Positions 31,601 through 62,307 of a stretch of 64,000 nucleotides of DNA are shown here, piece after piece. The stretch comes from Candidatus Methylomirabilota bacterium (GTDB taxonomy: Bacteria; Verrucomicrobiota; Verrucomicrobiia; Limisphaerales; SXQI01), in assembly GCA_035627835.1 (NCBI GenBank), contig DASPKX010000147.1:8964-72963 (forward strand). Reading direction: 5' to 3'. Within the stretch, counting starts at the first letter, position 1, and every line of letters starts with the position of its first letter. A model generated the notes under the pieces. That model was given only the letters and a program-made list of their open reading frames with translations, did not search any database and was not told the DNA's origin. The position numbers and the translations under genes are program-made.

Positions 31601-32643
31601 CCGAGCTGGTAAATGTTGCTTTGCCCAGGGCTTGGTTGCAGTGCGATTTTGCTGTTATCACGCGCAACCAACTCAGCGCTCTTCACCGGCTTGTTGAGCT
31701 GCAACTGATATTCGACCTTTGTTCCTTCCACGGCCGTAACGCGCGTGGTGTCCATGATCGTTTTTGGCTCCTGCTTCGTGTAAGTCGGGAAATTTAACGT
31801 GGCGTTGGCCTGCTTCAGCTCGGGCAGCTCGAAGACCTTGATCTTGTAATCACCGACTTCTCCGCCTGTGAACTGGACCTTGTAAACGAAATCATGCTGA
31901 ACGTCGTGGATGGTTCCGCCGAACAGGGGATCATCAAGGCTGCGCTGCAGATCGATCGTGCGCATTGCGCCGCCAGCGGGGCCAAACGACAACTTGGCTT
32001 CGCGCGGCCCGGGCTTTGGAAATTGCACCACCACCGCGACACTGGATCCCTTCTCCACCTCCGCGTCCCCGGGAGAGACTTGAATGCTCTTGAGAGCCGC
32101 TGGCACCGCGACACCTTTGCGGGCCAATGCTTCAGGGCGGCTTTGGTGCAGGCCCACCAACACGGCCATGGCGACCACCAAAGCTATCGAGTGACCGACA
32201 TGCGCGAAGAACAACCGATCGTAGAATTTCTGGAAGGAGCCTTTGCGGCGGACCATGTCACCCGCTTCGCGAATGACGCGTTCCTGCAGGTAACTGAACT
32301 TGCCGTCTGCGCCCGGCTGTTGCTCGATTGCTGCGAGCAAGCTCGCATTGAGTGTTGGATTCTCCTCTTCAAAGGCGCGGGCCACGTCGCGCCCCGTTAG
32401 CCGAATGCGCAGGGTTCGCGCCAAAGTGACGCCAGCGAGCAGGAGGGCCAGGAACACGACCGCACCGAACACCCAGCGGGTCATCCAGCCAGTTGACCAA
32501 TAAATGACCAGAAACACTGCGCCGACGAACGCCGTCACCGACCACGCGGTGGCAAGCCCGGTCCAGAGGCGAAAACGCTTGTAGCTAATGGCGAGCCGCT
32601 CGAGCTGCGTTTGCAAAGGGTTTCGCGTTATCATCGGTTTCAA
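28693..32643 (-). CDS. Large membrane-anchored coiled-coil protein (DUF4175-like) of a BatA/vWA cluster
   Basis: N-terminal TM helices, Ig-like beta region, long heptad-rich helices, a Gln/Gly-rich tract and C-terminal DPVPPKY...YYEKL. Confidence 0.75.
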   Translation of the reverse strand: MKPMITRNPLQTQLERLAISYKRFRLWTGLATAWSVTAFVGAVFLVIYWSTGWMTRWVFGAVVFLALLLAGVTLARTLRIRLTGRDVARAFEEENPTLNASLLAAIEQQPGADGKFSYLQERVIREAGDMVRRKGSFQKFYDRLFFAHVGHSIALVVAMAVLVGLHQSRPEALARKGVAVPAALKSIQVSPGDAEVEKGSSVAVVVQFPKPGPREAKLSFGPAGGAMRTIDLQRSLDDPLFGGTIHDVQHDFVYKVQFTGGEVGDYKIKVFELPELKQANATLNFPTYTKQEPKTIMDTTRVTAVEGTKVEYQLQLNKPVKSAELVARDNSKIALQPSPGQSNIYQLGLELLESKKYELRLVDADGRTNKAPPEFAFTAQPNRPPQFKLAFPRGDLRVSPLEEIAFAAETWDDFGLSDYGIAYSVGGDEPQFIKADVIQAPPTVAAVESTNSKALPKKQVNYMLPLETLDAQPDQLVSYFYWAEDVGPDGQPRRTYSDMFFAEVRPFEEIFRESTAGQQDQQEQQQQQGQQGNPTEQLAEIQKQIVTATWNLQRRESSLKVSPKYKDDVNVILNSQRDALQKAEAMMEELQDARLKPFLESATKSMTEAMNQLAAAGKGVTQPLPKALASEQSAYQSLLKLAAREFQVARSRQQRGGGGGGGGRNQQQVNELDLEQSEDRYETRSQAQGAQTPEQRENVQILSRLKDLARRQQDIQERLQELQTALQAADEKQREELMRQLKRLREEQRQMVQDMDEVRERVANQQNMERASEALSQLDQTREQANKAAEQMEQGQVGQALSSSARAQRDLEKLKEDFRQETSSAFTEQMRELRNQARQLAQNQEQLAQQLEKMKEPQRKSLGDSGEKAQIAERLEKQGTALTNMLSNMRQVTEQAEASEPLLSKQLYDTLRKQAQETTERDLDMSAELVRRGLLSQADQFEQRARTSLESLRDSVDRAAESVLGNEAESLRLAQRELTDLSQRLQNEIGEAGRREGGQGGQRNQLAENASGQREPGSTNLTGRAQGGGTNQLAQARGQGESESAEASEQNVEGERPRQLASNTQRQGQGRQPGRRGETGQTPGQGEQQGPGGEQQSNQQGQQQGQGQEGGRQPGQQQGQGRGEQQGQQNGRQQGGQGQGGQEEGGQNGGAGQTPQLANNNQQGGQQPGGQRQNRGGNRNGGNRNGGGAFFDNMNNGTGAREGQEGPLTGGDFRQWEDRLREVEELVSQPELREQLVRAREQARSVRAEFRRHSQEPKWDLVQNQVLTPLLEVRQRLAEELAKLESPESLVPIDRDPVPPKYSELVKNYYEKLGKD

Positions 32644-46562: not shown

Positions 46563-47291
46563 TCAACGACGCCCATCGTACCAAATTGCGCAGGCGGCAC
46601 GGTCCTTCACCACGCGACCGCGAGTCGTGAAGAACCGGAGGAAAAGTTTTAGATACTCCGTGCGGGAATACAGCTTGGCTTTCCGCGCGGAGGTCAGCAG
46701 AGGATGTTTTCGAAGAATGACGATCTTCTTCCCTTCTCGCGCCGCCCACTTGTGCAAACGCTGGCTGAGGTCCAGCTCTTCGCTAACGTAAAGGTTCGAG
46801 CTAAACCCGCCGACTTCTCGGAAAGCTCGGGTATCGCAGAAGATGAAGGAACCGGCCATCCACTCGCGGTTTTTGCTGATTTGGTTCCAGACCCAAGTGG
46901 CGAAATCCATTGCCCAATCGCGAGCATCCATCCGCACAACCGCTCCACCAGCGGCGACTTTGCCAGACTCAATCTGCGCAGCCATGTCATTGAGCAATTG
47001 GCGGGAGGGATAAGAGTCAGCGTCCACGAACAACAGCCAATCGCCAGTGGCAGCTTCAGCCCCGCGGTTCCGGGCGCGGCCAATCTGGTTGATCGGCTCA
47101 AACACGACGGTGGCGCCTTTGGCCTTGGCGATGTCAGCCGTACCATCGGTGGAGTTATTGTCACATACGATCAACTCCCAACTCCAACCGCGCTGCGTTA
47201 GAGCCGCCGCAGCAGCCTTAATCGCCTCCAAGGATGAGGCCAGCAGCTTCGCTTCGTTGAAAGCGGGGACGACGATGGAGAGTTTCATCAT
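46563..47291 (-). CDS. Glycosyltransferase family 2
   Basis: IVVPAFNE, VCDNNSTD, ARNRGA and FVDAD. Confidence 0.92.
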   Translation of the reverse strand: MMKLSIVVPAFNEAKLLASSLEAIKAAAAALTQRGWSWELIVCDNNSTDGTADIAKAKGATVVFEPINQIGRARNRGAEAATGDWLLFVDADSYPSRQLLNDMAAQIESGKVAAGGAVVRMDARDWAMDFATWVWNQISKNREWMAGSFIFCDTRAFREVGGFSSNLYVSEELDLSQRLHKWAAREGKKIVILRKHPLLTSARKAKLYSRTEYLKLFLRFFTTRGRVVKDRAACAIWYDGRR

Positions 47292-47364: not shown

Positions 47365-50300
47365 TTAACGGCGGACGTCTTTGGAGGACTTGCCGTTGCC
47401 GGGTTGTGGATCGGAAGGGGCGCCCGTTTGATCACCGGCTTGAGGATCACCTTGCATGACCAAACCGAGTTCGCCGTAAGGCTCGCCATTGCGCGCTGGT
47501 GTGCCCAAGCCGCCGCCTGTGCGGGTCTGGTCAGCCCCATCGCTCTTGCTGACGGCGTAGAGGAGATCGCGGGTGTCCGGGTTTAATGCGCGGATAATCG
47601 TTGCGGCGCCATAAGGGCTGAACGGAACGACGTAGCTATTGAATTCACCGTGTGAGTCCACCATGCGGTCTGCGCCAGTGTTGCCCAGCATGTAATCCAG
47701 GCCGCCGCCGCCGTAGGCCAAGTCAGCGTCACCGTACAGGCCTGCGTCAGGAGCGTCATTCAGGCCGCCGTTTGTTTCGAGATTGTCGTCGGAATTCAGG
47801 AGGTCATCGCCCAGGCCGCCGAACATGTGGTCGGAGTTAGTGCCGCCGACGAGCCAGTCATTGCCCAGGTCACCGAACAGGACGTCGTTGCCGTCATTGA
47901 CCTTGTTAGTGGTTGCGCCAACGAACGCTTCGAAGTTGAGCGCATGGCCAGCAACTTTCAGCAGCGCGTTGTTTTCGTTGTAATCGGTGAATTCGCGGAC
48001 CGTGGCATCGTAAACGATTGCTCGGGCCGTCGAAGGCGCAACGTAGATGGAGTCGAGGGCTTCCGCGCCAGAGATGCCGTCGTCCCCTGCTCCGCCGTGC
48101 AGGAAGTCGTCACCGAGGCCGCCGTAGATCAGGTCGTTGCCACCAATGTCGAATGGTTCCAAATCGACCGCTTTATTCAGTCGCCCAGTCGCGTTCAGAA
48201 TGTAGCTAGCGGCCATGGATTTGGATTGGATCGAACTCTGGGCCACAGCAACCAAACCATAGAGCGGTTCAGCGATGCCGTTGCGGGAGGTCAGGATCTT
48301 GCCGTCATCACCAAGGATGCCGTCTTCGCCTGTGCCGCCGCTCAGCCAGTCGTTACCGGATTCGCCGTAGAGATCATCGTCCTGGCCTTCGCCGTAGATC
48401 ACGTCATTGCCGCTGGCGCCGTGGAGGATGTCATCCCCAGCTTCGCCGTGAATCACATCACCAGCGCCGATGTCATCTGAGGCCACACCATTTGCGGTGT
48501 AGTCGATGAGATCAATCGCGCGTGGGATGATGCGGATCGTGCCGCCGTAGTTATCGTAGTTGAAGGTGAGGAATGCTCCTGAGGCCGAGCCTTTGCCAAT
48601 TGGGCGGAAGATTCTGCCGTTGTCGCCGAGCACCATGTCTGCGTCACGTGAATGCGCGTTTACGCCGGATGCGCCGACAGTGTTGCGTGCCAGGTCGATG
48701 CCCGAGCCGCCAAAGATCAAGTCGCCGCCATCTGGGCGTTGAGCCGGTGTGGTCAGACCAAAGAGATCCGAATTCCCGCCGATGATGTCGTCCTGGCCTT
48801 CGTTGCCGTAGATACGATCATCGCCACCATTGCCCTCGATGTAATCGTCACCGTCGTTGGCGGCTGTCACTGAAGCATTGGCTGCATCGTGATCGATGCT
48901 GCTATCGCCTTGGATGATTTCGTTGCCTAGTTGGCCAAAGATCAAGTCATCGTGAGCCCCGCCAGCAATGACATCGTTGCCAAAAACCATTGCGGCTGGT
49001 GTGATGGAATGGTCCAAAAGAATGATGTCTCGGCTTGCAGCACCGGTCGGGATCGCTTGAGCTTGTGCAGCCACGGCCGCTGAGCCATCAGTCGAGTACA
49101 GAAGGTTCCCGAGCAACACTCGGACGCGTGAAGTGACTGAATCGCCACGGCGGATGATCCAGGCATTGTCACCCGCGATCACATCGTTGCCGGTGCCGCC
49201 ATCAAGTTTGTCATTAAACCCGGAGACGCCTTCGATCTCGTCATGGCCGAGCACAACATTGTGGCCGCCGATGATATCGTCATCATCCGCGTCGCCGTAA
49301 ACCACATCGTCGCCCTGCCCGCCGAGAATAATGTCATCGCCAGCGTCGCCATGGATAAAGTCAGCAGCCCCGAGATCAGTGCTTTGGGTGTCGATTGAGC
49401 GGAAATTGTCATTGGCCGGCAGGCTGTAGTCGATGCGGCCGTGATCCCCGAAAACGAGGTCTTTCTCGCTGCCAGCGGAGATGGTGTCGCTCAATGTGCC
49501 GCCGAAGATCAGATCGTCGCCTTCGTTGCCGAAAATAGTGTCATTGCTGCCGATCGTGGGCTGAATCGTTGTGATGATTGAACGGGCGCCGTTGTTGTGG
49601 CGGAGGATCGAGGCGTTGTCGCCGAGAACAACGTCGTTGTTGGCTTGAGCTGTGATGGTGTCTGAACCAAAGCCGCCGAGGACGATGTCGTCACCTGCGC
49701 CGCTGAACACAACATCTGCGCCGCCGCGGGCAAAATCATGGCTGACCAGTTCGGTCCAGATGCCGGACTGCAGAATGTTGAGAGTGGCCTGGTCACCGGC
49801 TACGATGTCGGAGCCACTGAGCGTCACGATGGCATCCGAGCCCAAGCCGGCGAAAACGATGTTGTCGCCTTCTCCAGCATTGATCGAGTCGTCGCCGACT
49901 TCGCTGAGCAATCCGTCGGTGGTCGTGAGCTGGGTGAGCTTGCCGTTGGTGTAGGTCAGCTGCCCTTGGTCACCAACGATAATGTCGCTGTTGGCATCGC
50001 CGGTGATGGTGTCACTCGCCGTTCCGCCGAGGATGATATCATCGCCAGCATTGCCATGAATTTCGTCAGGGCTGCCGATGGACGGGGCGGTTGTCTGGAT
50101 CAGTGACAACCAACCATTGTTTAGACGAGAGATCGAGCCATTGTCCCCGATGACGAGGTCCGAGCCTTCCTCGGCCGTAATGGTGTCATGGCCGAAGCCG
50201 GCGAGCACAATGTCCTCACCTGCGCCGCTGAAGATCACATCATCCCCGCCGCGTGCGAAGTCATGGGTGACGAGGCTCGTCCAGACGCCGGTCTCAAGGA

Positions 50301-53300
50301 TATTGAGCGTGCCTTGATCGGCCACGATAATGTCGGCGCCGGTCAAGGTTGCGATGCTGTCAGAGCCGAGGCCGCCGAAGACAATGTTGCTGCCTTCTTC
50401 CGCGTTGATGGTGTCAGCGCCCACTTCCGCTAAGGTTCCATCGGTCGTCGTGATCTGGGTCAGATGACCGTTGGTGTAGGTCAAGAGACCCTGGTCGCCG
50501 ATCACGATATCATTGCCGCTGTGGGCTTCGATATGATCGCCCGCAGCGCCGCCGATCACGATATCATCCCCTTCATTACCGTTGAGGAGGTCAGCCGCGC
50601 CTTGCTCAGGAGCAACCGAGGCCATGCTAATGAACAGGCCGGTGCTGGTGCGGTTCAGCTCGCCGTTATCTCCAATGACGATGTCGGCGTTCGCCTCAGC
50701 ACTCACAGTGTCCTGAGCATAGCCCGCCAGCACAATATCCGCTCCAGCACCGGTAGCGATCATATCGTCACCACCGCGTGAAACGTCGTGTGAAGTCAGT
50801 TTCGTCCACACCCCGGCTTCAGTAATCGTGAGCGTGGCCTGGTCACCAGCGATGATGTCAGCACCGGAAAGAGTAATGATCGAGTCGTTGCCGAGGCCAC
50901 CGAAGACAACATTGTCACCTTCGCCTGCGGAGATGGTGTCTCCGGCTGCTTCTTGTGCATCACCGTCTGTGTTGGTGATTTCAGTCAAATGACCGTTCGA
51001 GTAGCTCAGCTTGCCCTGGTCGCCAATGATGATGTCATTGCCAGCATCGGAGGCGATACTGTCACCTGCTGTGCCGCCGAGGATGATGTCATTGCCATCC
51101 TGGCCGTGGAGAATGTCCGAGCTGCCGAAGAGCGGCGCTGAGGTCTCGATGATGGCCAACCAGGCGTTGGCCTGCCGGAGGATCCTGCCGTTGTCACCTA
51201 TCAGAGTGTCGTCCCCGGCTTGGCCGAGAACGAGATCTTCACCGCAACCAGCGAGCACAACGTCCGAGCCGTTGCCGGCGTGGATGGTGTCAGAGCCGCC
51301 GCGTTCAGTGTCGTGGCTAACGAACTCGAACCAAACGCCAGCTTCGTGGATGTTCAAAGTGGCCTGATCGCCAGCAATGAGATCTGTGCCTGATTGTGTG
51401 GTGATTGTATCGTCGCCGAGGCCCGCGATGACGACGTTGTCACCCTCACCTGCGCTGATCACGTCACCACCGACTTCAGTCAACTGGTTGTCGGTCGAGG
51501 TGATCTGGACGAGGTAACCGTTGGTGTAGGTGAGCAACCCTTGATCACCGACGAGGATATCATTGTCATTTCCGCTGTTGAGCAGGTCACCGGCGGCGCC
51601 GCCTAGAACAATGTCGTTCCCTTCAGCGGTCGAAATTGTGTCAGACGCACCGATGGATGGGCTGATGGTGCGGATAGTGACAAGAACGCTGTTTAAATAA
51701 TCGATCTGAGCGCTATCACCGATGGCGATGTCGTCGCCAGATTCACCGTCAATAAGGTCACTGTCGGCGCCGCCCACGAGGACATCAGCGGCCGCTCCGC
51801 CGTTCAGGATGTCGGCGCTGCCGTCAGCGGTAGCCGTGCTCGTTACGAAGTCCAGCAGGCCAGCGGGGGTGCGGAGGATTTGACCGTTATCGCCGATAAT
51901 GAGGTCAGCACCGGCCTCCCCATTAGCAACATCATTACCTTGGCCAGCAATCACTGTGTCGTCACCGCTGCCCGCATTGATTGTATCAGCACCGCCACGA
52001 GCAGTGTCGTGACTGAGTGAGTCGTGCCAAACGCCCGTGGAGGAAATCTTCACGGACCCTTGATCACCGAAGACGAGGTCCGCGCCGCTGAGGGTCACAA
52101 TTTCGTCACTGCCCAGGCCACCGAGAACAATGTTATTGCCTTCACCACTGTTGATCGTGTCGTCGCCCACTTCGGCCAGCGCTCCGTCCGTGGTCGTAAC
52201 GAAAGTCAGATCCCCATTGGTGAAGCTGACGGATCCCTGATCGCCAAGAAGAACATCGTCGCCATCATTACCGAAGACGGAGTCTGAGCCAGCGCCCGAG
52301 AGAATGATGTCGTTCCCTTCGTTGCCGTGAACTGTGTCAGCGGCGCCGTAAGATGGAGCTGTGGTCGCGGCGCCGATGAGTACGGCGAAGGATGTTCTCG
52401 TTACAGACCCGTTATCACCGAGAACGAGGTCAGCGCCAGCGCCTGCGGTGATTGTGTCTGCGTCAAAACCACCGATCAGAACGTCATTGCCAGCAGCGCC
52501 GTTGAGAGTGTCGGATGCACCGCGGCCATGATCCTGGCTGCTTGCCTCGGTCCAGACACCTGCGACGGTCAGTGTCACGGTCGCTTGGTCGCCGATGAGC
52601 AAGTCGTTGCCCTCAGCAGCTTGAAGAGTGTCGGCACCTAGACCGCCGACGAGAATGTTATCCCCGGAACCGGATGTCAGAGTGTCGGAGGCGTATTCAG
52701 CGGCGTTTCCGTCGGTTGTTGTTACAGCCGTAAGAGCGCCGTTGGTGTAGGTGGCAATCGCCTGGTCGCCGATCAAGATGTCGTTGCCTGCCTCACCATG
52801 GATCGTATCTGTGTTGGTTCCGCCAATCAGCAGATCATTGCCATCCCACCCCCACAGCGTGTCGGCCGCCCCATTCGCTGGGCTGGTGGATGCGATGCTG
52901 ATCCGATTGGCGCCAGAGAAGATCGCCTGGGCATTATCACCCACGAGGGCGTCATTGCCGATCCAACCGAAGAGAACATCCGCGCCGATACCGCCGACCA
53001 AGGTGTCGTTGCCCCTTTCCCCGTGCAGAACGTCGTCTGCACCAGTGGCGGTGAGAATGGACGTGGCAGAGCCAAGAGCGCCATTGCTGTAGAGCAGTTC
53101 CGCGTGATCGCCAAAGAGGATGTCGTCCCCGTCCCAGCCCCAGAGTGTGTCAGCGCCGCCACCGGAGATCAGAACATCACTGCCGATGTCGCCGTAAAGG
53201 GTTTCTGATTGAGCGCCATCCTGGTCGCTGGATGTCACCCGTACTAGAACCCCATTGGAATAGTCGATGGAAGCGCCGGAGCTGACGAGAATGTCGTTCC

Positions 53301-56300
53301 CAGCGTGACCAGCCAAGGTATCGACGCCGCCGCTGCCCACGAGGATGTCGTTGCCGTCATCCCCGTTCAAGGTCTCGTTCGTGGAAGGACCATTGTACGA
53401 TTCAGCAGAGTTTAAAAGACCGTGGTTTGTCCGGGTGATGCGGCCATTATCGCCGAAGACCAGGTCATGACCGGAACCAGCGAAGAAGGCATCAACACCT
53501 TCACCCCCGAGGATCATGTCGTTATCCGCGTCACCGTAGATGGTGTCCCCTGAGCCCACAAAGTCGTGAGTCGTGGCGTTGTTCCAGGCGCCCCAGAAAT
53601 AATGGACAGTGGCATTGTCGCCGATAATCAAATCTGCGCCATTCCAACCCGCAAGCAGGTCAGCGCCGACGCCGCCAACCAGAATGTCGTTTCCGTCATC
53701 AGCGTAGAGATCATCTCCTGCCCCTGCTGCCGAAGTTGATTCGAATTTGGCTGCTTCATTAGCGCCGGTGTTCCGGTCGAAGGAGAATTCAAGATATCCT
53801 TCGTCACCAGCGAGCAAATCGTCGCCAGAACCGCCGGAGAGGAAGTCAGCCCCTGCGCCGCCGATCAGGAAGTCGGCGCCATCATGACCGAACAAGGTAT
53901 CATTGCCGCCCTGGCCGCTGTTGACCGATTTGGCGAAGTAAACTGGGACACCGAGTTCCCACTCGAAGTCGATGTTATCGCCAGCGATGATATCCCGGCC
54001 ACTGCCGCCGTGGATTGTATCGTTGCCCATGCCGCCAACGATGATGTTCGTTCCACTCCACTCGTAGATCTCATCGTTGCCGCCATTGCCGAAAATTTGA
54101 TCGTCACCGGAATCGCCGTGGATCACGTCAGCGCGGCCGCTGCCCTCGATACGATCGTCACCGGAGCCGCCGTAAATGACAGCATTCCCCAGGAACGCAT
54201 CGGTTAGGATAATCAGGTCGTTGCCAGAACCGCCACTAATGGTGGAAGTGCGGCCGGAGAGGGAAGTTCCTTCGTAGATCAACTGGTCGTCACCACTGCC
54301 ACCTTCCAATTCGACTGGAGCAGTGACACCGTCACCCACAAGGATAAAGTCGTCGCCATTGCTGAAATCACCGACGATCTTCTTGACGCCTGTGAACCGT
54401 TGCTTGCGACCCCAGGCGGTCACATTGATGGTTTCGCCCTCTGGGTCGGAAGCACTGCCTGCAACATGCTCGATGATGTAGGTTTCGCTGGCGTCATCTT
54501 CCTCAAGGTTGCGCCAGTTCGCGCGGTCACCAACATTGAGGTAAAGGGTGCCGTTGCCGCCTTGGTCCGCGCCGACCCACTCTTCGGGTTGTGAGGCGAG
54601 GCCGCCGAGGTAAACAGGCTTTGGAATGCGGATGTAACCGAGTGTGAAACTGGCGCTCTTGCGGAAGGTCCAGAACAGGAACTCGATTTCAATCGTGACC
54701 GATGCGACAACTTTGATGCGTTCATCGCCACCTTTGGTCCGCTTGGCGCTGAACTCGAATTCAAGAGCTACGCCAGCCAGCTTGAACCCGAAGAGACGGG
54801 CTGACACTTCGCCACGGCCCCAGATGCCGAAATCTTCCTCCCCAACGTCGCCCGTGAACCAGACTTTGAAGCTAACTGCTCCGACGAGGCCGTTGCTGCG
54901 GGAGCCGAGGACGATCTCACCGTAGAAATTAACTTCGAAGTGACCGTTGGAATCGATCCATCCGTCCGCATCCAATGTAGCAAGCCCGAAGAAGCTCATT
55001 CCGGCAGAGAACTCGATCTTCCAGGCACCATTGCGAACGTTCATCGTGAACGATGCGTCCATGCTGAAGATCTTGAGGATGGTCAGCTCACCGTTGAGGT
55101 GGAGGCGGAAGGAGTTGGCCGGTATGCCGTTGACGCTTGAGTCCGTGGTGTTGATGCGTAGTTGACCGCTGGCTTCAAACTCAACGATCGAAAGCACATC
55201 TGCCTCAACGGAAACATTAACACTGAGCACGATGCCCCCGCTGCGGAAGATGCCGAAGCCATCGACGTGAACGTCCAGGGGGCCAAGCACCAGCGTGGCG
55301 TCAATATCGATGCGCAGCTCGTTATTGCGGAAGGCAATCTCGAGCTTGCCGGAGGCTGTCGCAAAACCGAGGAATTCAATAGAGCCAGTAATGCGAATCA
55401 GAATGCCAGGAGCGATGGTCGTGGCGCGCGCTCCGAGGGACATTCCGACTGGCAATGTGGCGTTATGGCCGGTGGTGTTGATTTCGAGAGTGAAAGTTCC
55501 CGTGATCTTCACCCCTGCCCCGCCGCCGAAGTCGTTACCCACGCCGGCGCTGATATCGATTCGCGCCACGATCCCGTCGTTCCGCACAGCGAGCCCTGCC
55601 TGAACAGCGATCTCACCGATGAAGCCTACTTTGAGATAACCATCCACCCCAATCACAATCCCGTTGGAATTCCCTGTGAACTCAAACTGGGTCTTGAGTT
55701 CAAAGCTGTTAACAAACGACAGAGTGCCCGCGCCGAAAACGCGAACAGTGCGGCCTTCAATAGTTACAGTTTCGATTTCGTCGGTGAACGTGCCTGTGCG
55801 TTTGTTAACCACGGGGCGGCTAATCTCAGCTGCGGCAGCTTTCGTGTTCAGCTCGACTTTAAAGCGTCCCGAAATCGTGATGCCTAACGCGGCGGCAATA
55901 TTCGGCGCGGTTTGAAGGGTCGCGTCAAGGCTCGCGACCAAACCTTCGGAACTAATCTGCAAATTGCCCACGATGTTGGCGGAGCCAATCGGTCCCAAGC
56001 CCATGGCCGCAGCCATCATCATGTCCAACTTCTCGCCGCTGGCTTCGAACCAAAGGTTTGCCTGGAGAACGAGACTCCCAGCAACGCTGATTTCAGCAGC
56101 CGCGTTGATGACGAGATAAACGCCAGGAGCGCCGATGGACCCGTTGAGCTGCGGGGCTCCTTTCGGAATGACGAACGCCTTCGTCCCATCCGCATTCGTT
56201 ATGAGTGCAGCTTGCGTTTCGGGGGCGAGGAATTGAACGTAGCTGGCCGGGACCGTGACAGATTGGTTTAAGCCGCTCGTGTTGACCCGCAGACGAGCTG

Positions 56301-59300
56301 TGGAGGTGTTGCTGAAAGTCGAGGCTAAGTCACCGCCAAAGGATAAGGTTAACGAAACATCGGCGGCAAAGCCCTCCTCGTTCAGGACAAAGACGGCGCG
56401 ACCATGAAGGTTCAGGGCGTCGCCGCCGGGAACGCCGAGCTTCACCGAACCATCGGCAAACAAACTAATGCTGCCAGTAGTGACAGAGAACACGAAGGCG
56501 CCACTGATTTCCAGCAGTTGTGTGTTCGTGCCAGGAATCTTAAGTCCAACTTTGCCCGCAAGTTGAGCCTGGATGAAGACTTCGCTGAAATCGATGACAA
56601 TGGTGTCACCACCCGTATCGAGGACAAGGCCAGCCTGGCCGTTATTCGCGGACGCTGCGAAATCACCCTTGGTGAAATCGATGGCGGAGAGGCCGGAGGT
56701 GAGACCAACGCCAAGGTTCAGGTCCAACTTAATGTCGCGGAAGGTCGCGGTCAGAAAATCCAGGCCAACAACATCCACGCCCCCAATTTCACCTTTAATA
56801 GCGAGGTAGCGGGCTGGGTCGAGCAGGTTGGTTGGGATGAAAAGAGCGGCTCCGATGGTGACGTCGTTGATTGAGAGACCAATCGCGTCCGCATCAGGCG
56901 CATCATAGATCGGCGAGCTTGGGTTTGTCGTAATGATGCCATCACCGTTGCGGTCAGCCCAGTAAGGGCCGTTCGCTCCGATAAAACCAAACAGGTCGAT
57001 ACCTGCGATCGTGAGGCTCGTAACTTCCTTGTGCTGCCCGTTCGTCAGTTGAACGTCGTAAACAGCGCCCTTCGTGATCTCGATTCCACCGACCAGGTTC
57101 AGCACCCCAAGAATGTCGATGACGACCTTGGAGGAAGCCGCACGGATATAGTGACTCTCCATGTCGAGAGTCACAGTTATTGGCGTCTCCATACCGTCCA
57201 CGATGGTTACGGCGCCGGTTGGAACTTTGTAGCCAGCTGTTTCAGGACCGTTTCCATCGGGGTCAGGGAAGCTCGCGACGAAGTCAACAACCGGAGGATT
57301 GAGCGGGTTGCCAATGACTTTACCAATATTCAGTTCGACGGCCAAGTCCTTGGCGGAAATCTCGATGCCATCGATGCCAATCAAGCCCGCGTTATCGGCG
57401 CTGATGCTAACGGCATAGTAACGGCTAGGATCAATTGGGTTCGTCGGCGTCATGATTGCCACGCCGAGATCGAGGTTATCCAGGACGAACCCTACTGCTG
57501 AAGAATTGACGGTATCTGAACCGTTGATAACACCATCGTTGTTGGTGTCTGAGCGATATGGCCCATTAACGCCGACAAACGCTTGAACATCGGAAGCTCC
57601 GATGGTCAGGAACTCGAGTTCGGTTTCCCGGCCAGCAAACCCGAAGGAAGAGAGAGTGATGTCGTAAGCGTTGCCCTTTGTGAACGCGAAGCTGCCTTGC
57701 AGATGAACAAACCCGCCAATCCCCAACACTGCTTGTTCAACGGCGACTTCAATGACTGCGTCTTCGAAGTTAAGATAGACAGGATCCTGGCCCGTTGGGA
57801 TGGCAAAGCCTGCACCGTCATCAACTTCGGCGAAGTTGATAGCGTCTGGAGCCCACAACGGGTTTTCAAGAGGGTGAGAAACCTGGTTCAGACCAACTGT
57901 AATACCGCGACCTGACAATTGGAAATCATCACCAAGGCCAACGAACTCGATGGAGCCTGCGCTCGCGGAGAGCGCGAAGTAACTGGTCGCATCAAAAATG
58001 TTGGTTGGCTCGAAAATGCCAACACCGACATCGAGATCTTCCAGGGCCAAACCGATCGCGCCGCTATCCTCGTCTGCGGAAATGTTGCCGTTTTGATCAC
58101 GGACCCAGTATGGCCCATTCCAACCGACGAAGGCGTAAACGTTGCTCGCACCAATGGTCATGGTCTCGACTTCGACCATGTCACCACCTGTAGTCGGCAG
58201 CTCGACAGTTTTGCCCTTCTGGAATTCAAAACTGCCAGTGAGGTAAACGAACTTGGAAATCTTCAGGGTCGCTTGCTCGACGGACACCCCGACGAAAGCG
58301 TCGTCATAGTCAAGGTAAACAGAGTCATCGCCGGTTGGAACTTCGAAGCCGAGACCGTCATTTAGGGCCGGGAAGTAAATCGGATCAGGCCCGAGCAACC
58401 CACCCAACTCAATTAACGCGGTGGCTTCATTGAGGGACAGAGTGATGTTCTTCCCAGAGAGTTCGAAATCATCTTCCAATCCGACGAACGCGATGGATTC
58501 AGCGGAGGCCTTCAGCGCGCGATAGCTTACATCATCAAATGGATTGGTTGGCTCGAACAATGCCATGCCAAAATCAAGATCTTCCAATGCCAAGCCGATG
58601 GCTTCGTTATTCGGGTCAACGATCACTTCGCCGGCATTGTTACGGGTCCAGTATGGACCACCCCAACCAACGAAAGCATAGACGTTGCTTGCGCCGATCG
58701 TCATTGTTTCAACTTCCTTCCATTCCAAGTCGCCCTCAGAGCCAACTGGAACTTCGGTCGTCTTCCCCTTCTCGAATTGGAAGCTGCCGGTCAGGTAAAC
58801 GAATTGCGAAATCTGGAGTGTGGCCCGCTCAACAGAGATGCTCAGGTAAGCGTCATCAAAGTCGAGGAGCACAGGAGCGCCGCCTGTTTCAACCTCAAAC
58901 CCGCCACCTTCAAGGCCAGGGAAATAGATCGGAGTTTCGAACATATCGAGCACCAATGGGCTCGAACCTTGGTTCAAACTGACGCTGATATTCTCACCAG
59001 AGAGTTGGAAATGCTCACCCAAGCCGACGAAGCTAACGCTTTGCGCGGTGGCTTTCATGGCCATGTATTCGTAAGCATCCAGAGGATTGGTCGGCTCAAA
59101 TATAGCCAATCCGAAATCCAGATCCTGCAGCGCTAGACCAATCGCTTTGCTGGTTGGGTCGGCGACAATCGAGCCATCGACATTCCTCTTCCAGTATGGG
59201 CCGTCCCAACCGACGAAGGCATGAACATCGCTTGCGCCGATGGTCAGCGTCTCGACTTCCTTCCAATCTTCGGGATCCTGCCCCTCCTCGGTTGGCACAC

Positions 59301-62300
59301 GAAGCGTGCGGCCTTTCTCGAAAGCGAAGCTGCCAGTGAGGTAGATGAACTTGTAAATCTGGAGAGTGGCTTCCTCGACTGTAACGCGCGTGATCGCCTC
59401 ACTGTAATCGAGAGTCACAAACTCAGAACGAGGCCCCGCGCCTGGGACTTCGCTCACTGCACCGGTCTTAATCTTCAGACCGTTCGAGCCGTCCTCGTTT
59501 TCAATCGCGCTGAAATCCACGGCTTCCAAGAGGAAGTCTGGAGTGCTCCAGTCTTCAACTTGATTTAAACCAACTTCCAAGCCTTTGACTTCAACCTTGA
59601 GAATATCGCCGAAGCCAACCAAACCCGCGTGGTCGGCATTGACCTTCACGGCCATGTACTTGGAAGGATCGGTAAGAGATGTGGCCTCCAGCATCGCGAC
59701 GCCCACATCAACACCGTCGAGCACGAAGCCCAGGGCATCGGTGTTCACGACACCGTTTTCATCCCAGTATGGACCGCCAACACCAGCAAAAACACGAAGG
59801 CCGGAACCACCAATGAGAAACGCCTCGACCTCCTTCGTGTCGTCACCCACGGGGACATCAATGGAGCGTCCCTTTTCAATGGAGAGGCTTCCCTGGATCT
59901 GAATGAAATTAGCAATCTGGAGATTTGCGAAGTCGATGGAGGCCTCGAGGATTGCTCCTTCGAAATCCAAGGCGACTTCGGTGACTGCTCCGGCGCCAGC
60001 TATCTCAGTTTTCGCGCCAGTGGGGATGACAAGCTTGCCACCGTCCATGGAGCTGAAGTCAATTGCAGGCGCTGGGTTAAAGCGGGTGGCGGTGGGGTTG
60101 CTTCCCTCATTAATGCCCAGTTCAATCCCCGAGATCTCCAACTTGAACAAATCGCCGAACCCGACAGCGCGCGCGCTGTCCGCGCTCACTTTCAGAGCGA
60201 AGTAGCTGCTGTAATCGAAGAGACTGCTCGACTCGCCGATGAGCAAACCGAGGGCGACATCTTCCAGGACAAAGCCCATCGCCTCATTGTTTGTGCCGGC
60301 GGGCGTCCAATACGGCCCACCCACACCGACGAATGCGCGAACGCGAGAAGCGCCGACGAGCAGGACATCGACTTCTTCCGAGTCTCCGTTGTCGAGCGGG
60401 GCTTCGATAGACCCGCCGTTCTGGAAAGCAAAGCTGCCCTGGATTTGAACGAACTGCGAAATCTTAAGTTCAGCAAGATCAACACTGGCTTCGATGATTT
60501 CACCATCGAAATCAAGAACCACCTCGGAATTACCCGCTGGAATGGCCAGGCCGCCCGTTGCAGCGAAATCGATCGCTTCTTCAGGAGTAAGGGCGGTTTC
60601 GAGAGGATGATCCGCCGTGTTTACACCGAAGGTGATTCCAGAAAAACTCAGGCTGAAGATATCACCCAAGCCAACGATCTGCGCGGTCTGCGCCTCGATC
60701 TTAGCCGCGAAGTAAGAACTGAAGTCGGTGATCTCGGAACCTTCCATCATGGCGATGGCAAGATTCACGTTATCCAAAACGAAGCCAATGGAACGATCAT
60801 TGAACCCATTACCGTTCCCATCGAGATCCTCGAAGTATGAGCCACCAACACCGGCAAATGCCCGGACGCCACTGGCGCCAACGCTCATCAGGTCAACTTC
60901 CTTGAGGTCACCATCAACACTTACCTCAACCGGAACTCCCTTTTGGAAGGTGAAGCCCCCTTCAATATGAATGAAGTCACCGAGCAGGAGCTTGGCGTTG
61001 CCGATGCTCGCGCTGAAGATGGTGTCTTCAAAATCGATGCTGATCGGGTTGCCAGCCGAGCCAAGGATCAATGGGTCTCCCGAGAAATCCACGACCGGCG
61101 GCGCAAGTGGATTCCGGAGAGGATCGCCGCCGCCGTTCACTTGGATAACGATGTCAGAGGCGCTGATCTCGACTTCGTCCATCCCAACGGTTTTGATGGA
61201 GTCCGCCTCGATTTTCGCGGCGTGGAAACGACCAGTGACACCCATCATCAATGTCAGGCCGAACTTGGCGCCGTCTAATGCAAAGCCAAATGCGCTGTCA
61301 TTAATTTCGGACGCATCCTGAACTCCGTCATTATTAACATCGTTCCAGTAAGGCCCGTTAAAGCCAGCGAAAGCGTGGATGTTCGACCCACTGATGTTCA
61401 GGGCAAGAACAGAGACGGTATCGCCATTGGTCAGAGTGACGGTGTCAGTCGTGACCTGTGGAAGGACGAAATCGCCGGTCAGATGAGCGAACCCAGAAAG
61501 GCCGAGAGTAATGCGGCCTTCCATCTGCATGAAGTTTGGATTGGCGATGGAAAGCGTTGTAGTTGAGCCACCTACATTGAAGGATTCGTTAACGGGCTGA
61601 CCGGTGGTGTTAAACACCACCTTCATGTTGTCAGCCAAGGTCAGATCACTGAAACCGGCGAGATTAACGGAGCCCGACAGCTCCCCCGCAATGCCGCCAC
61701 CAGTGATGAAGAATGCGCCGCTTGCTTCGCTCAACGTGACGCCGGCACCGAAGCCACCGAACGTGACACTCGCATCTTCAGCCTGAACTGCGATGCCGGA
61801 ATCCCCATCGGTCGTGGTCACATTCTGTAGGACGAATGAGCCGGTGATCGTCTCCCCGCGCACGAGGAAAGTTCCAACGAAAGCCAGCGGCGTGGAGCCG
61901 CCGCCGCTGAGGAAGGAATCAACCTGAGCCTGCGAAGCGCCACTGATCGCCGTGACCGTAAAACTGTTTGCCGCCAGAGCAGAAATATCCACCCGACTTG
62001 AGGCGTCTGAGGCTGAGAGCAGAGAATCCTGCTCAAGTCCTTCGAAGATGTTGTCGATGATCTCAGCAGGATTGAAGGTCAGGTTTTCGGCCTGTGAGAG
62101 AGCGTCAGAGGACACTTCCGCGCCTTCAAAGATAACCTCAATAGCTTGATCTGGAGCGGGGACGCCCTGCAAGGCTTCCGTGTTCGCGTCCACGGGAGCA
62201 GCGGCGAGAAGAACGCGAGCTTCAAGCGCCTCAAGGTCAAAACGGGCTAAGCGTGAACCTTTTGGAGGCTCACACGCGCGCGAAAATGCGTCCCGTTTTG

Positions 62301-62307
62301 TTTCCAT
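47365..62307 (-). CDS. Giant LEPR-XLL / RTX calcium-binding surface protein (~4,980 aa)
   Basis: Uninterrupted ~15-kb frame. N-terminal LEALEARVLLA motif, nine beta-rich repeats and dozens of GGxGxD nonapeptides. Start placed at ATG 62307. Confidence 0.92.
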   Translation of the reverse strand: METKRDAFSRACEPPKGSRLARFDLEALEARVLLAAAPVDANTEALQGVPAPDQAIEVIFEGAEVSSDALSQAENLTFNPAEIIDNIFEGLEQDSLLSASDASSRVDISALAANSFTVTAISGASQAQVDSFLSGGGSTPLAFVGTFLVRGETITGSFVLQNVTTTDGDSGIAVQAEDASVTFGGFGAGVTLSEASGAFFITGGGIAGELSGSVNLAGFSDLTLADNMKVVFNTTGQPVNESFNVGGSTTTLSIANPNFMQMEGRITLGLSGFAHLTGDFVLPQVTTDTVTLTNGDTVSVLALNISGSNIHAFAGFNGPYWNDVNNDGVQDASEINDSAFGFALDGAKFGLTLMMGVTGRFHAAKIEADSIKTVGMDEVEISASDIVIQVNGGGDPLRNPLAPPVVDFSGDPLILGSAGNPISIDFEDTIFSASIGNAKLLLGDFIHIEGGFTFQKGVPVEVSVDGDLKEVDLMSVGASGVRAFAGVGGSYFEDLDGNGNGFNDRSIGFVLDNVNLAIAMMEGSEITDFSSYFAAKIEAQTAQIVGLGDIFSLSFSGITFGVNTADHPLETALTPEEAIDFAATGGLAIPAGNSEVVLDFDGEIIEASVDLAELKISQFVQIQGSFAFQNGGSIEAPLDNGDSEEVDVLLVGASRVRAFVGVGGPYWTPAGTNNEAMGFVLEDVALGLLIGESSSLFDYSSYFALKVSADSARAVGFGDLFKLEISGIELGINEGSNPTATRFNPAPAIDFSSMDGGKLVIPTGAKTEIAGAGAVTEVALDFEGAILEASIDFANLQIANFIQIQGSLSIEKGRSIDVPVGDDTKEVEAFLIGGSGLRVFAGVGGPYWDENGVVNTDALGFVLDGVDVGVAMLEATSLTDPSKYMAVKVNADHAGLVGFGDILKVEVKGLEVGLNQVEDWSTPDFLLEAVDFSAIENEDGSNGLKIKTGAVSEVPGAGPRSEFVTLDYSEAITRVTVEEATLQIYKFIYLTGSFAFEKGRTLRVPTEEGQDPEDWKEVETLTIGASDVHAFVGWDGPYWKRNVDGSIVADPTSKAIGLALQDLDFGLAIFEPTNPLDAYEYMAMKATAQSVSFVGLGEHFQLSGENISVSLNQGSSPLVLDMFETPIYFPGLEGGGFEVETGGAPVLLDFDDAYLSISVERATLQISQFVYLTGSFQFEKGKTTEVPVGSEGDLEWKEVETMTIGASNVYAFVGWGGPYWTRNNAGEVIVDPNNEAIGLALEDLDFGMALFEPTNPFDDVSYRALKASAESIAFVGLEDDFELSGKNITLSLNEATALIELGGLLGPDPIYFPALNDGLGFEVPTGDDSVYLDYDDAFVGVSVEQATLKISKFVYLTGSFEFQKGKTVELPTTGGDMVEVETMTIGASNVYAFVGWNGPYWVRDQNGNISADEDSGAIGLALEDLDVGVGIFEPTNIFDATSYFALSASAGSIEFVGLGDDFQLSGRGITVGLNQVSHPLENPLWAPDAINFAEVDDGAGFAIPTGQDPVYLNFEDAVIEVAVEQAVLGIGGFVHLQGSFAFTKGNAYDITLSSFGFAGRETELEFLTIGASDVQAFVGVNGPYRSDTNNDGVINGSDTVNSSAVGFVLDNLDLGVAIMTPTNPIDPSRYYAVSISADNAGLIGIDGIEISAKDLAVELNIGKVIGNPLNPPVVDFVASFPDPDGNGPETAGYKVPTGAVTIVDGMETPITVTLDMESHYIRAASSKVVIDILGVLNLVGGIEITKGAVYDVQLTNGQHKEVTSLTIAGIDLFGFIGANGPYWADRNGDGIITTNPSSPIYDAPDADAIGLSINDVTIGAALFIPTNLLDPARYLAIKGEIGGVDVVGLDFLTATFRDIKLDLNLGVGLTSGLSAIDFTKGDFAASANNGQAGLVLDTGGDTIVIDFSEVFIQAQLAGKVGLKIPGTNTQLLEISGAFVFSVTTGSISLFADGSVKLGVPGGDALNLHGRAVFVLNEEGFAADVSLTLSFGGDLASTFSNTSTARLRVNTSGLNQSVTVPASYVQFLAPETQAALITNADGTKAFVIPKGAPQLNGSIGAPGVYLVINAAAEISVAGSLVLQANLWFEASGEKLDMMMAAAMGLGPIGSANIVGNLQISSEGLVASLDATLQTAPNIAAALGITISGRFKVELNTKAAAAEISRPVVNKRTGTFTDEIETVTIEGRTVRVFGAGTLSFVNSFELKTQFEFTGNSNGIVIGVDGYLKVGFIGEIAVQAGLAVRNDGIVARIDISAGVGNDFGGGAGVKITGTFTLEINTTGHNATLPVGMSLGARATTIAPGILIRITGSIEFLGFATASGKLEIAFRNNELRIDIDATLVLGPLDVHVDGFGIFRSGGIVLSVNVSVEADVLSIVEFEASGQLRINTTDSSVNGIPANSFRLHLNGELTILKIFSMDASFTMNVRNGAWKIEFSAGMSFFGLATLDADGWIDSNGHFEVNFYGEIVLGSRSNGLVGAVSFKVWFTGDVGEEDFGIWGRGEVSARLFGFKLAGVALEFEFSAKRTKGGDERIKVVASVTIEIEFLFWTFRKSASFTLGYIRIPKPVYLGGLASQPEEWVGADQGGNGTLYLNVGDRANWRNLEEDDASETYIIEHVAGSASDPEGETINVTAWGRKQRFTGVKKIVGDFSNGDDFILVGDGVTAPVELEGGSGDDQLIYEGTSLSGRTSTISGGSGNDLIILTDAFLGNAVIYGGSGDDRIEGSGRADVIHGDSGDDQIFGNGGNDEIYEWSGTNIIVGGMGNDTIHGGSGRDIIAGDNIDFEWELGVPVYFAKSVNSGQGGNDTLFGHDGADFLIGGAGADFLSGGSGDDLLAGDEGYLEFSFDRNTGANEAAKFESTSAAGAGDDLYADDGNDILVGGVGADLLAGWNGADLIIGDNATVHYFWGAWNNATTHDFVGSGDTIYGDADNDMILGGEGVDAFFAGSGHDLVFGDNGRITRTNHGLLNSAESYNGPSTNETLNGDDGNDILVGSGGVDTLAGHAGNDILVSSGASIDYSNGVLVRVTSSDQDGAQSETLYGDIGSDVLISGGGADTLWGWDGDDILFGDHAELLYSNGALGSATSILTATGADDVLHGERGNDTLVGGIGADVLFGWIGNDALVGDNAQAIFSGANRISIASTSPANGAADTLWGWDGNDLLIGGTNTDTIHGEAGNDILIGDQAIATYTNGALTAVTTTDGNAAEYASDTLTSGSGDNILVGGLGADTLQAAEGNDLLIGDQATVTLTVAGVWTEASSQDHGRGASDTLNGAAGNDVLIGGFDADTITAGAGADLVLGDNGSVTRTSFAVLIGAATTAPSYGAADTVHGNEGNDIILSGAGSDSVFGNDGDDVLLGDQGSVSFTNGDLTFVTTTDGALAEVGDDTINSGEGNNIVLGGLGSDEIVTLSGADLVFGDQGSVKISSTGVWHDSLSHDTARGGADTINAGSGDDTVIAGQGNDVANGEAGADLIIGDNGQILRTPAGLLDFVTSTATADGSADILNGGAAADVLVGGADSDLIDGESGDDIAIGDSAQIDYLNSVLVTIRTISPSIGASDTISTAEGNDIVLGGAAGDLLNSGNDNDILVGDQGLLTYTNGYLVQITSTDNQLTEVGGDVISAGEGDNVVIAGLGDDTITTQSGTDLIAGDQATLNIHEAGVWFEFVSHDTERGGSDTIHAGNGSDVVLAGCGEDLVLGQAGDDTLIGDNGRILRQANAWLAIIETSAPLFGSSDILHGQDGNDIILGGTAGDSIASDAGNDIIIGDQGKLSYSNGHLTEITNTDGDAQEAAGDTISAGEGDNVVFGGLGNDSIITLSGADIIAGDQATLTITEAGVWTKLTSHDVSRGGDDMIATGAGADIVLAGYAQDTVSAEANADIVIGDNGELNRTSTGLFISMASVAPEQGAADLLNGNEGDDIVIGGAAGDHIEAHSGNDIVIGDQGLLTYTNGHLTQITTTDGTLAEVGADTINAEEGSNIVFGGLGSDSIATLTGADIIVADQGTLNILETGVWTSLVTHDFARGGDDVIFSGAGEDIVLAGFGHDTITAEEGSDLVIGDNGSISRLNNGWLSLIQTTAPSIGSPDEIHGNAGDDIILGGTASDTITGDANSDIIVGDQGQLTYTNGKLTQLTTTDGLLSEVGDDSINAGEGDNIVFAGLGSDAIVTLSGSDIVAGDQATLNILQSGIWTELVSHDFARGGADVVFSGAGDDIVLGGFGSDTITAQANNDVVLGDNASILRHNNGARSIITTIQPTIGSNDTIFGNEGDDLIFGGTLSDTISAGSEKDLVFGDHGRIDYSLPANDNFRSIDTQSTDLGAADFIHGDAGDDIILGGQGDDVVYGDADDDDIIGGHNVVLGHDEIEGVSGFNDKLDGGTGNDVIAGDNAWIIRRGDSVTSRVRVLLGNLLYSTDGSAAVAAQAQAIPTGAASRDIILLDHSITPAAMVFGNDVIAGGAHDDLIFGQLGNEIIQGDSSIDHDAANASVTAANDGDDYIEGNGGDDRIYGNEGQDDIIGGNSDLFGLTTPAQRPDGGDLIFGGSGIDLARNTVGASGVNAHSRDADMVLGDNGRIFRPIGKGSASGAFLTFNYDNYGGTIRIIPRAIDLIDYTANGVASDDIGAGDVIHGEAGDDILHGASGNDVIYGEGQDDDLYGESGNDWLSGGTGEDGILGDDGKILTSRNGIAEPLYGLVAVAQSSIQSKSMAASYILNATGRLNKAVDLEPFDIGGNDLIYGGLGDDFLHGGAGDDGISGAEALDSIYVAPSTARAIVYDATVREFTDYNENNALLKVAGHALNFEAFVGATTNKVNDGNDVLFGDLGNDWLVGGTNSDHMFGGLGDDLLNSDDNLETNGGLNDAPDAGLYGDADLAYGGGGLDYMLGNTGADRMVDSHGEFNSYVVPFSPYGAATIIRALNPDTRDLLYAVSKSDGADQTRTGGGLGTPARNGEPYGELGLVMQGDPQAGDQTGAPSDPQPGNGKSSKDVRR

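Follow-up and report, generated by a model that had tools for sequence, protein, structure and literature searches.

A giant RTX protein with an N-terminal LEPR-XLL leader in a genome lacking a recognisable type I pair, and a candidate exporter encoded in trans

In the textbook view giant RTX proteins are exported by type I secretion, their C-terminus directing them to an ABC (ATP-binding cassette) transporter. How, then, might such a protein leave a cell in which no such transporter can be recognised? The question is raised by one gene in a stretch of 64,000 nucleotides (the window) at positions 8,964 to 72,963 of contig DASPKX010000147.1, here C147, from a genome labelled Candidatus Methylomirabilota bacterium and placed by GTDB within the Verrucomicrobiota (GCA_035627835.1; 4.89 Mb, 184 contigs, 94% complete). 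The gene encodes a protein of 4,980 residues, hereafter the giant, with an N-terminal leader of the LEPR-XLL type. A canonical type I ABC/adaptor pair is not recognisable in this genome. An intact five-gene cassette without an ABC protein is found on another contig, C178, and in relatives such cassettes are linked, both statistically and physically, to LEPR-XLL giants. On balance it would seem probable that the giant is a surface or extracellular protein of the adhesin type and that the C178 cassette exports it in trans.

The open frame runs from 62460 to 47365 on the reverse strand (14.9 kb), unbroken by stops. Within it the ATG at 62307 is the likely start, since it has an AGG 9 nucleotides upstream and the M3 peptidase gene, which is divergent, starts at 62478. 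The ortholog P0003 (4,998 residues), from a Verrucomicrobiota metagenome-assembled genome (GCA_040754135.1, locus L018), is collinear with the giant and 44% identical to it over 99% of the part searched, residues 250-2650, so the frame is a conserved gene rather than a chance one. The labels of the nearest homologs, both of the giant and of the cassette proteins described below, suggest Verrucomicrobiota/Verrucomicrobiales. The giant belongs to an uncharacterised, multi-phylum family in which a LEPR-XLL leader is followed by beta repeats of about 181 residues, an amphipathic beta-meander, a junction module and then RTX repeats. Two further members, P0024 and P0009, extend to the end of their contig or locus. 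Searching the giant's own genome with each of its domains found no paralogs. The gene and its parts are as follows.

47365..62307, reverse strand: the giant gene, 4,980 codons and a stop, a single open frame.
62188..62307, reverse strand: leader, residues 1-40, a basic stretch and then RFDLEALEARVLLAAAP (LEPR-XLL / Planc_extracel-type motif).
61627..62187, reverse strand: N-terminal region, residues 41-227, an acidic linker and a short beta segment, read from the translation.
56608..61626, reverse strand: nine tandem all-beta repeats of about 181 residues, residues 228-1900, delimited by anchors and autocorrelation.
54628..56607, reverse strand: mid domain, residues 1901-2560, modelled by AlphaFold2 (AF2) as a 36-strand, strictly amphipathic antiparallel beta-meander.
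54328..54627, reverse strand: junction module, residues 2561-2660 (YLNVG...GVKKIVGDF...), conserved in the family, directly before the RTX roll.
47653..54327, reverse strand: RTX calcium-binding beta-roll region, residues 2661-4885 (PF00353).
47368..47652, reverse strand: C-terminal tail, residues 4886-4980 (EFNSYVVPFSP...DPQPGNGKSSKDVRR), conserved and non-RTX, with a charged end rich in Gly, Pro and Gln.

A preliminary description of this DNA had proposed a giant of about 4,980 residues in four parts, and every part that it described is present in one intact gene. Its roughly 2,200 residues of RTX modules are matched by PF00353 at 467 bits over 28 stretches, with 91 GxDxUx cores (loose motifs) between residues 2650 and 4900 and 22 strict motifs; a super-repeat of 175 residues spans residues 3150-4300, where identity at lag 175 is 45%. 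Its distinct tail is seen in the last 95 or so residues, which are non-RTX. The protein is acidic (718 Asp and Glu vs 205 Lys and Arg) and has only two cysteines. Together with the extensive calcium-binding repeats this agrees with the earlier view of a giant protein of surface or extracellular type. The G+C content of the 5' half of the gene, which encodes the leader and repeats (window 56000-62000), is 0.54-0.55 vs 0.58-0.60 in the rest of the window; amino-acid composition and a different origin are both possible explanations.

The leader carries the motif LEALEARVLLA, as had been described, at residues 25-35, so that it begins 25 residues from the ATG, at the extreme N-terminus of a very large protein. 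The NCBIfam model NF012209 (LEPR-XLL) matches residues 25-43 with a borderline 17.1 bits against a cut-off of 17. The giant's leader also fits the motif RRLxxExLExRxLLA of Studholme 2004, as quoted in PMC8567305; there, and in a listing in PMC10952558, motifs of this type appear as a putative export signal. Among 13 leaders compared, from homologs and from the cassette-linked giants described below, 12 conform to E-x-L-E-x-R-x-[LM]-L; that of P0018 reads AERLEPRTLL. In the ortholog P0003 the leader is kept as LEPLEPRLMLSA, upstream of the annotated start of the gene. It was found in at least 11 of 24 homologs, some labelled Massilia or Pigmentiphaga. The preliminary description had taken LEPR-XLL as a marker of the Planctomycetes-Verrucomicrobia-Chlamydiae group, but the family is not specific to that group, since Massilia-labelled homologs carry the leader and the Pigmentiphaga gene call starts within the motif. 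For the region that follows (residues 41-227) family searches gave no match, and tblastn gave a weak one to locus L022.

Only two frames in the giant's genome carry the leader: the giant itself and a giant of 9,521 residues on contig C152. By blastp these two have no similarity beyond the leader and their C-termini are unrelated. Across all contigs of the 4.9-Mb genome, stop-to-stop frames of 1,500 residues or more number 39, of which just these two have a LEPR-XLL leader; the largest frames include those of 9,919 (C25), 9,521 (C152) and 5,420 residues (C43).

The preliminary description had proposed a search of the genome for type I genes. With a PrtD-type model for the ABC protein (TIGR01842) the best match in the genome scored 263 bits vs a cut-off of 510, and with a HlyD-type model for the adaptor (TIGR01843) 56 bits vs 208, so that no such pair lies above the cut-offs in this 94%-complete genome. 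Six full-length ABC exporters are present, none of them on a contig with an adaptor match.

The genome encodes two SecA_DEAD proteins, a canonical one (contig C113, a frame of 1,071 residues) and a paralog of 677 residues. Around the paralog, at locus L017 on contig C178, stand five intact genes on one strand, none of which encodes an ABC protein.

C178: outer-membrane efflux protein (OEP, TolC family), 582 residues.
C178: small adaptor, 253 residues.
C178: GAF-HlyD adaptor, 627 residues.
C178 (L017:8439-10595): M50-HlyD fusion, 718 residues.
C178: SecA paralog, 677 residues, with DEAD, preprotein-binding and P-loop domains.

In the SecA paralog Pfam did not detect the C-terminal scaffold domain. 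The M50 fusion keeps the motifs HEFGH and NPLMRFDG, and its residues 21-405 align to the whole of NF041824, a model of daptide leader proteases (E 4.7e-50; 171 bits vs a cut-off of 300). The same five genes in the same order, standing alone, are found in relatives (L020 and L021). A locus of this kind was described by Kamneva, Poudel and Ward in 2015 (PMC4452313), who noted that it had no ABC partner and suggested the SecA paralog as its ATPase. They called its biological role 'completely unknown' and named no cargo (PMC4452313). Methylobacterium extorquens AM1 is among the cultivable carriers of this locus (META1p2399-2402; PMC4452313).

The M50 fusion is itself highly conserved and abundant, with more than 4,000 related proteins at E <= 0.001; the top 120 relatives are mostly 718 residues long (715-740) and at least 58% identical. 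The name often given to these relatives by the Joint Genome Institute is 'putative peptide zinc metalloprotease'.

The link between such cassettes and LEPR-XLL giants comes from three sources. By investigating 301 genomes of the phylum, among them 25 in which the M50 fusion has a strong ortholog, we found that the leader, searched for as the DNA pattern of E-x-L-E-P-R-x-[LIVMF]-L-[SA], matches 13 genomes and that 10 of these 13 are among the 25 cassette genomes (odds ratio 61, p = 5.6e-10). The second source is physical. In two genomes (G225 and G123) the SecA paralog is followed immediately, on the same strand, by the start of a LEPR giant. A LEPR giant of 6,038 residues is found in G267 upstream of the cassette, again on the same strand, with 4.4 kb between the end of its frame and the M50 gene, and in G213 one of at least 5,983 residues, whose 3' end is outside the sequence examined, starts 23.6 kb upstream on the same strand. 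The third source is family membership. The G225 giant has the same family of ~181-residue repeats as the giant of the window (tblastn E 4.7e-48), and those of G267 and G213 have segments resembling its mid domain (tblastn). The literature was searched for a connection between LEPR-XLL giants and the SecA-paralog locus, and no paper making one was found. The preliminary description had called the export route of LEPR-XLL proteins unresolved; it can now be narrowed to a candidate, an ABC-less cassette of a TolC-family protein, three adaptors, one of them fused to M50, and a SecA paralog, which is present on C178 and in four relatives abuts LEPR-XLL giants, one of them of the same family as the giant of the window.

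From these observations we infer that the giant is a cargo, and also the direction and energetics of its export, the cleavage of its leader and its adhesive or structural role. A classical type I system would not be the exporter, none being recognisable in the genome. Instead the giant's N-terminal leader would be recognised by the five-gene cassette encoded in trans on C178. The truncated SecA paralog would supply ATP-driven threading. The intramembrane M50 (HExxH) protease, with its weak PqqD-like leader-binding domain and its fused periplasmic adaptor, may bind the leader and probably removes it, and the two further adaptors (one with GAF) and the TolC-family channel would take the chain across the periplasm and the outer membrane. 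Outside the cell calcium would fold the RTX roll of about 90 turns, making export irreversible and directional, and the repeat array and amphipathic beta domain may form an extended surface fibre, an adhesin or an element of a matrix.

A broader proposal is that the giant and the 9,521-residue giant of C152 are both cargos of a distinct, ABC-less, leader-reading secretion system acting in trans. This system of double-membrane bacteria would combine a truncated SecA motor with a leader protease, of the type that acts on ribosomally synthesised and post-translationally modified peptides (RiPPs), fused to an adaptor, the chain being fed through adaptors and TolC; in the present genome it would serve unlinked genes whose only common feature is the leader. 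In addition, as a bacterial amphipathic beta-belt, the mid domain would keep the fibre attached to the surface of the outer membrane or to hydrophobic substrates. Taken jointly, these claims are more tentative than export of the giant alone, and we would put them at slightly short of an even chance.

Several observations weigh against export by the cassette. In this genome the giant, on C147, and the cassette, on C178, are not adjacent and have unrelated flanks; the cassette in fact adjoins neither of the two LEPR giants, and the link between giant and cassette therefore rests on association in other genomes. At the ortholog locus (L018) P0003 is also unlinked to a cassette. A control with the reversed pattern likewise leans towards cassette genomes, with an odds ratio of 5.6 that probably reflects genome size, and the comparison of pattern and control gives p = 0.005. 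No match to the pattern was found in 15 of the 25 cassette genomes, though so strict a pattern overlooks variants, the giant's own leader among them. That leader departs from the consensus, with Ala for Pro and Ala for Ser, and barely reaches the NCBIfam cut-off, and in a Pfam scan of the first 72 residues no family was found and Planc_extracel (PF07595) did not score. The PqqD match in the M50 fusion (residues 43-98, E 0.023) is weak. Finally, as the genome is 94% complete and in 184 contigs, the missing part could include a type I operon, and classical type I substrates likewise combine RTX repeats with a conserved C-terminal block.

These last points are the core of the alternative that survives best, which we nevertheless consider unlikely: that the giant is a classical type I substrate, leaving C-terminus first with its tail read as the signal, and is served by one of the generic ABC exporters, or by an operon in the unassembled 6%, with a separate adaptor and a TolC-family protein. 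Some 2,200 residues of RTX in a strongly acidic, Cys-poor protein would suit such a route, and the genome offers not only the six full-length ABC exporters but also about 11 TolC-family proteins (OEP genes). The failure of any ABC protein or adaptor to reach the type I cut-offs, and of any full-length ABC exporter to share a contig with an adaptor match, argues against it.

The tail bears on this alternative in both directions. The C-terminal block is conserved, residues 4700-4980 being 81% identical to P0003, and it is common to a second RTX protein in L018, which fits a type I signal. A type I signal would be an uncleaved one within about the last 60 residues. The block is terminal in the giant, P0003 and P0004. 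In P0014, P0015, P0019 and P0022, on the other hand, the block (EFNSY...DPQPGN), which lies 93 residues from the end of the giant, is internal, 356-961 residues from the end, and this speaks against a strictly terminal signal. The end of the tail is charged and rich in Gly and Pro, which also counts against the type I route, and a C-terminal signal does not explain why an N-terminal leader is conserved across the family. The idea of two export signals in the preliminary description is accordingly not supported: no type I ABC/adaptor pair was found to read a C-terminal one, and the tail is internal in four relatives. A search of PDB sequences with the tail gave matches only on the preceding RTX turns. 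The second RTX protein of L018 (L018:19-6726, 2,235 residues) lies directly upstream of P0003 and ends in the same tail (59% identity over 268 residues), and the tail is therefore a module common to several RTX proteins.

The mid domain raises the separate matter of how the giant might be held at the cell surface. The alternating-residue beta region of about 650 residues that had been described is borne out by 36 predicted strands, mostly of exactly 12 residues and joined by tight hairpins, with a hydrophobic face of Leu, Ile, Phe, Val, Ala and Gly (mean hydropathy +2.6) and a polar face of Ser, Glu, Thr, Arg, Asp and Asn (-1.3). A segment of 881 residues containing the domain was modelled by AF2 with a predicted local distance difference test score (pLDDT) of 77.6 and a predicted template modelling (TM) score (pTM) of 0.50. 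In Foldseek the top match of the domain was the beta-belt of ApoB100 (E 6e-6, TM 0.20, probability 1.0), followed by large outer-membrane barrels; this likeness is one of sheet type and not of homology. The domain has no Pfam model, a search of PDB sequences was empty, and the family is rare, with 357 clusters among 1.84 billion representatives.

It could be supposed that this domain anchors the protein much as an autotransporter or intimin is anchored, by forming a giant beta-barrel in the outer membrane or a sheet embedded in the membrane, with the repeats and RTX region outside; such an arrangement concerns anchoring and would be compatible with any export route. Amphipathic strands of about 12 residues, 36 in number and with tight hairpins, do have a membrane-spanning length, and the barrels of LptD, FimD, PapC and SlpA are listed by Foldseek at E 1e-4 to 1e-3. 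The TM-scores are however only 0.12-0.20, the top match is the open ApoB100 belt and the pTM is low at 0.50. There is also no aromatic girdle, Trp making up about 1% of the hydrophobic face and Tyr not being among its common residues. The inner part of the domain occurs in variable copy number in the relatives P0012 and P0017. A closed barrel, with its fixed number of strands, would not allow such variation, and an open, extensible sheet is therefore favoured over it. We regard a membrane-embedded domain as improbable, and a closed outer-membrane barrel was rejected as the leading reading because of the variable copy number and the lack of aromatics on the hydrophobic face.

Less probable still is a two-step, Sec-dependent route in which the LEPR-XLL motif would be an unusual Sec signal peptide and the giant would pass SecYEG and then either a secretin, in a type II-like manner, or remain periplasmic. 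The motif is treated in the literature as a type of signal peptide (PMC8567305, PMC10952558), in the giant's leader a basic N-region precedes the hydrophobic VLLAAAPV, and four secretin genes are present in the genome. The hydrophobic core is nevertheless only about eight residues long and follows Asp and Glu residues, the best 12-residue hydropathy window being 1.45; the passage through a secretin of a folded substrate of about 500 kDa, as estimated from 4,980 residues, would be unusual from general knowledge; and the linkage to the cassette in relatives would be left unexplained. On contig C54 (52386-52883) a secretin domain (PF00263, 179 bits) lies inside an open frame of 3,866 residues, unusually large for a secretin-containing protein. 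That the gene is silent or decaying, with no functional product, is scarcely credible given 14.9 kb of frame without a stop and a collinear ortholog that at 44% identity keeps both leader and tail.

The nine beta-rich repeats of the preliminary description are seen as nine anchors (F.G..GPYW) at residues 313, 484, 659, 840, 1031, 1212, 1393, 1577 and 1775 and as an autocorrelation peak at lag 181; a self-BLAST for repeats returned the identity match only. From an in-phase alignment of 19 repeat pairs AF2 built a model of a repeat pair (pLDDT 84.4, pTM 0.78) that is all-beta, with long antiparallel strands of 12-23 residues. Nothing similar was found in the PDB by Foldseek (best TM 0.25; the top hit ranked by E-value has TM 0.15), no PDB sequence was matched in a profile search and the repeats have no Pfam model. 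Ig-like extender repeats of the Big, VCBS or cadherin type were looked for, and the Pfam scan of the giant found RTX alone. The junction module that precedes the RTX roll is a small beta domain in the AF2 model, has invariant columns in the family alignment (A3) and is matched by tblastn in L018, L022, L019 and L023.

At L019:10001-30719 (GCA_965283725.1) the homolog P0002 (3,572 residues) abuts a frame of 12,717 residues on the same strand, and the two look like one giant of more than 16,000 residues split by a frameshift or an assembly error. The locus has 17 near-identical copies of the repeat, there of about 183 residues.

The genes beside the giant are the following.

46563-47291, reverse strand: glycosyltransferase family 2 (GT2) gene, neighbour of the giant.
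From 62478, forward strand: M3 peptidase gene, divergent neighbour of the giant.

A GT2 and a peptidase had been described as the neighbours, and the absence of HlyB, HlyD and TolC genes from the window that had also been described is borne out, since the whole-genome searches for ABC, HlyD and OEP proteins gave no match on contig C147, which holds the window. Other neighbours are an FAD (flavin adenine dinucleotide) oxidase and an epimerase. Neither these nor the GT2 and M3 peptidase genes are kept beside the ortholog at L018, and a functional link of the giant to the GT2, oxidase and epimerase genes was rejected because they are not conserved next to P0003. Between the giant and the GT2 gene a terminator or promoter consensus was looked for and none was found. 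Elsewhere in the window, at 28693-32643 on the reverse strand, an open frame of 1,316 residues matches no Pfam family at E <= 0.001.

What makes this locus of interest is that a giant RTX protein occurs with a conserved N-terminal leader in place of a recognisable type I transporter, in a genome that also has, complete, the set of genes described since 2015 as being of unknown role. With a single cassette and two candidate cargos, unlinked and alike only in the leader, the genome offers a clean natural test of how LEPR-XLL giants are exported. The window adds a candidate case of action in trans with two candidate cargos, together with the domain anatomy of one putative cargo family. About 2,300 residues of the giant, in the 181-residue repeats and the amphipathic beta-meander, come from domain families that have neither a Pfam model nor a solved structure.

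A match to a characterised adhesin family was looked for and none was found, and the nearest comparison is with LapA of Pseudomonas, MpIBP of Marinomonas and SiiE of Salmonella (exported by LapBCE/SiiCDF). Like these the giant is an acidic, Cys-poor protein of several thousand residues with tandem beta repeats and a C-terminal RTX region, and a further likeness is the likely passage through a TolC-type channel and periplasmic adaptors. It differs in that Pfam detects no Ig-like, Big or VCBS repeats, its own repeats having no relative in Pfam or the PDB, and in that its genome has no ABC protein of the HlyB/LapB type and no matching adaptor. LapA and MpIBP have an N-terminal retention module; in its place the giant has the conserved LEPR-XLL leader. 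With the proteins of NF012209 and PF07595 it shares an N-terminal E-x-L-E-x-R-x-L-L on a very large protein, but has Ala for Pro and Ala for Ser and is not scored by the Pfam model. The beta-belt of ApoB100 resembles the mid domain as a long run of amphipathic antiparallel strands and is its best fold match, though with a TM of only 0.20 and no sequence relation, and lipid binding by the mid domain would be a conjecture.

For the cassette, the closest parallels are the RiPP leader-peptide intramembrane metalloproteases (NF041824; YydH/LiaK) and the locus of Kamneva and colleagues. The M50 fusion resembles the former in its alignment over the whole model, its HExxH and NPxxxxDG motifs and its weak PqqD match; it differs in scoring below the family cut-off (171 vs 300 bits), in being fused to a periplasmic adaptor and in its presumed substrate, a protein of about 5,000 residues rather than a short peptide. 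With the locus of Kamneva and colleagues (PMC4452313) the cassette shares a SecA paralog, three HlyD-type proteins, one with weak M50 similarity and one with GAF, an OEP and the lack of an ABC protein, and differs in that we propose it as the exporter of two unlinked LEPR-XLL giants.

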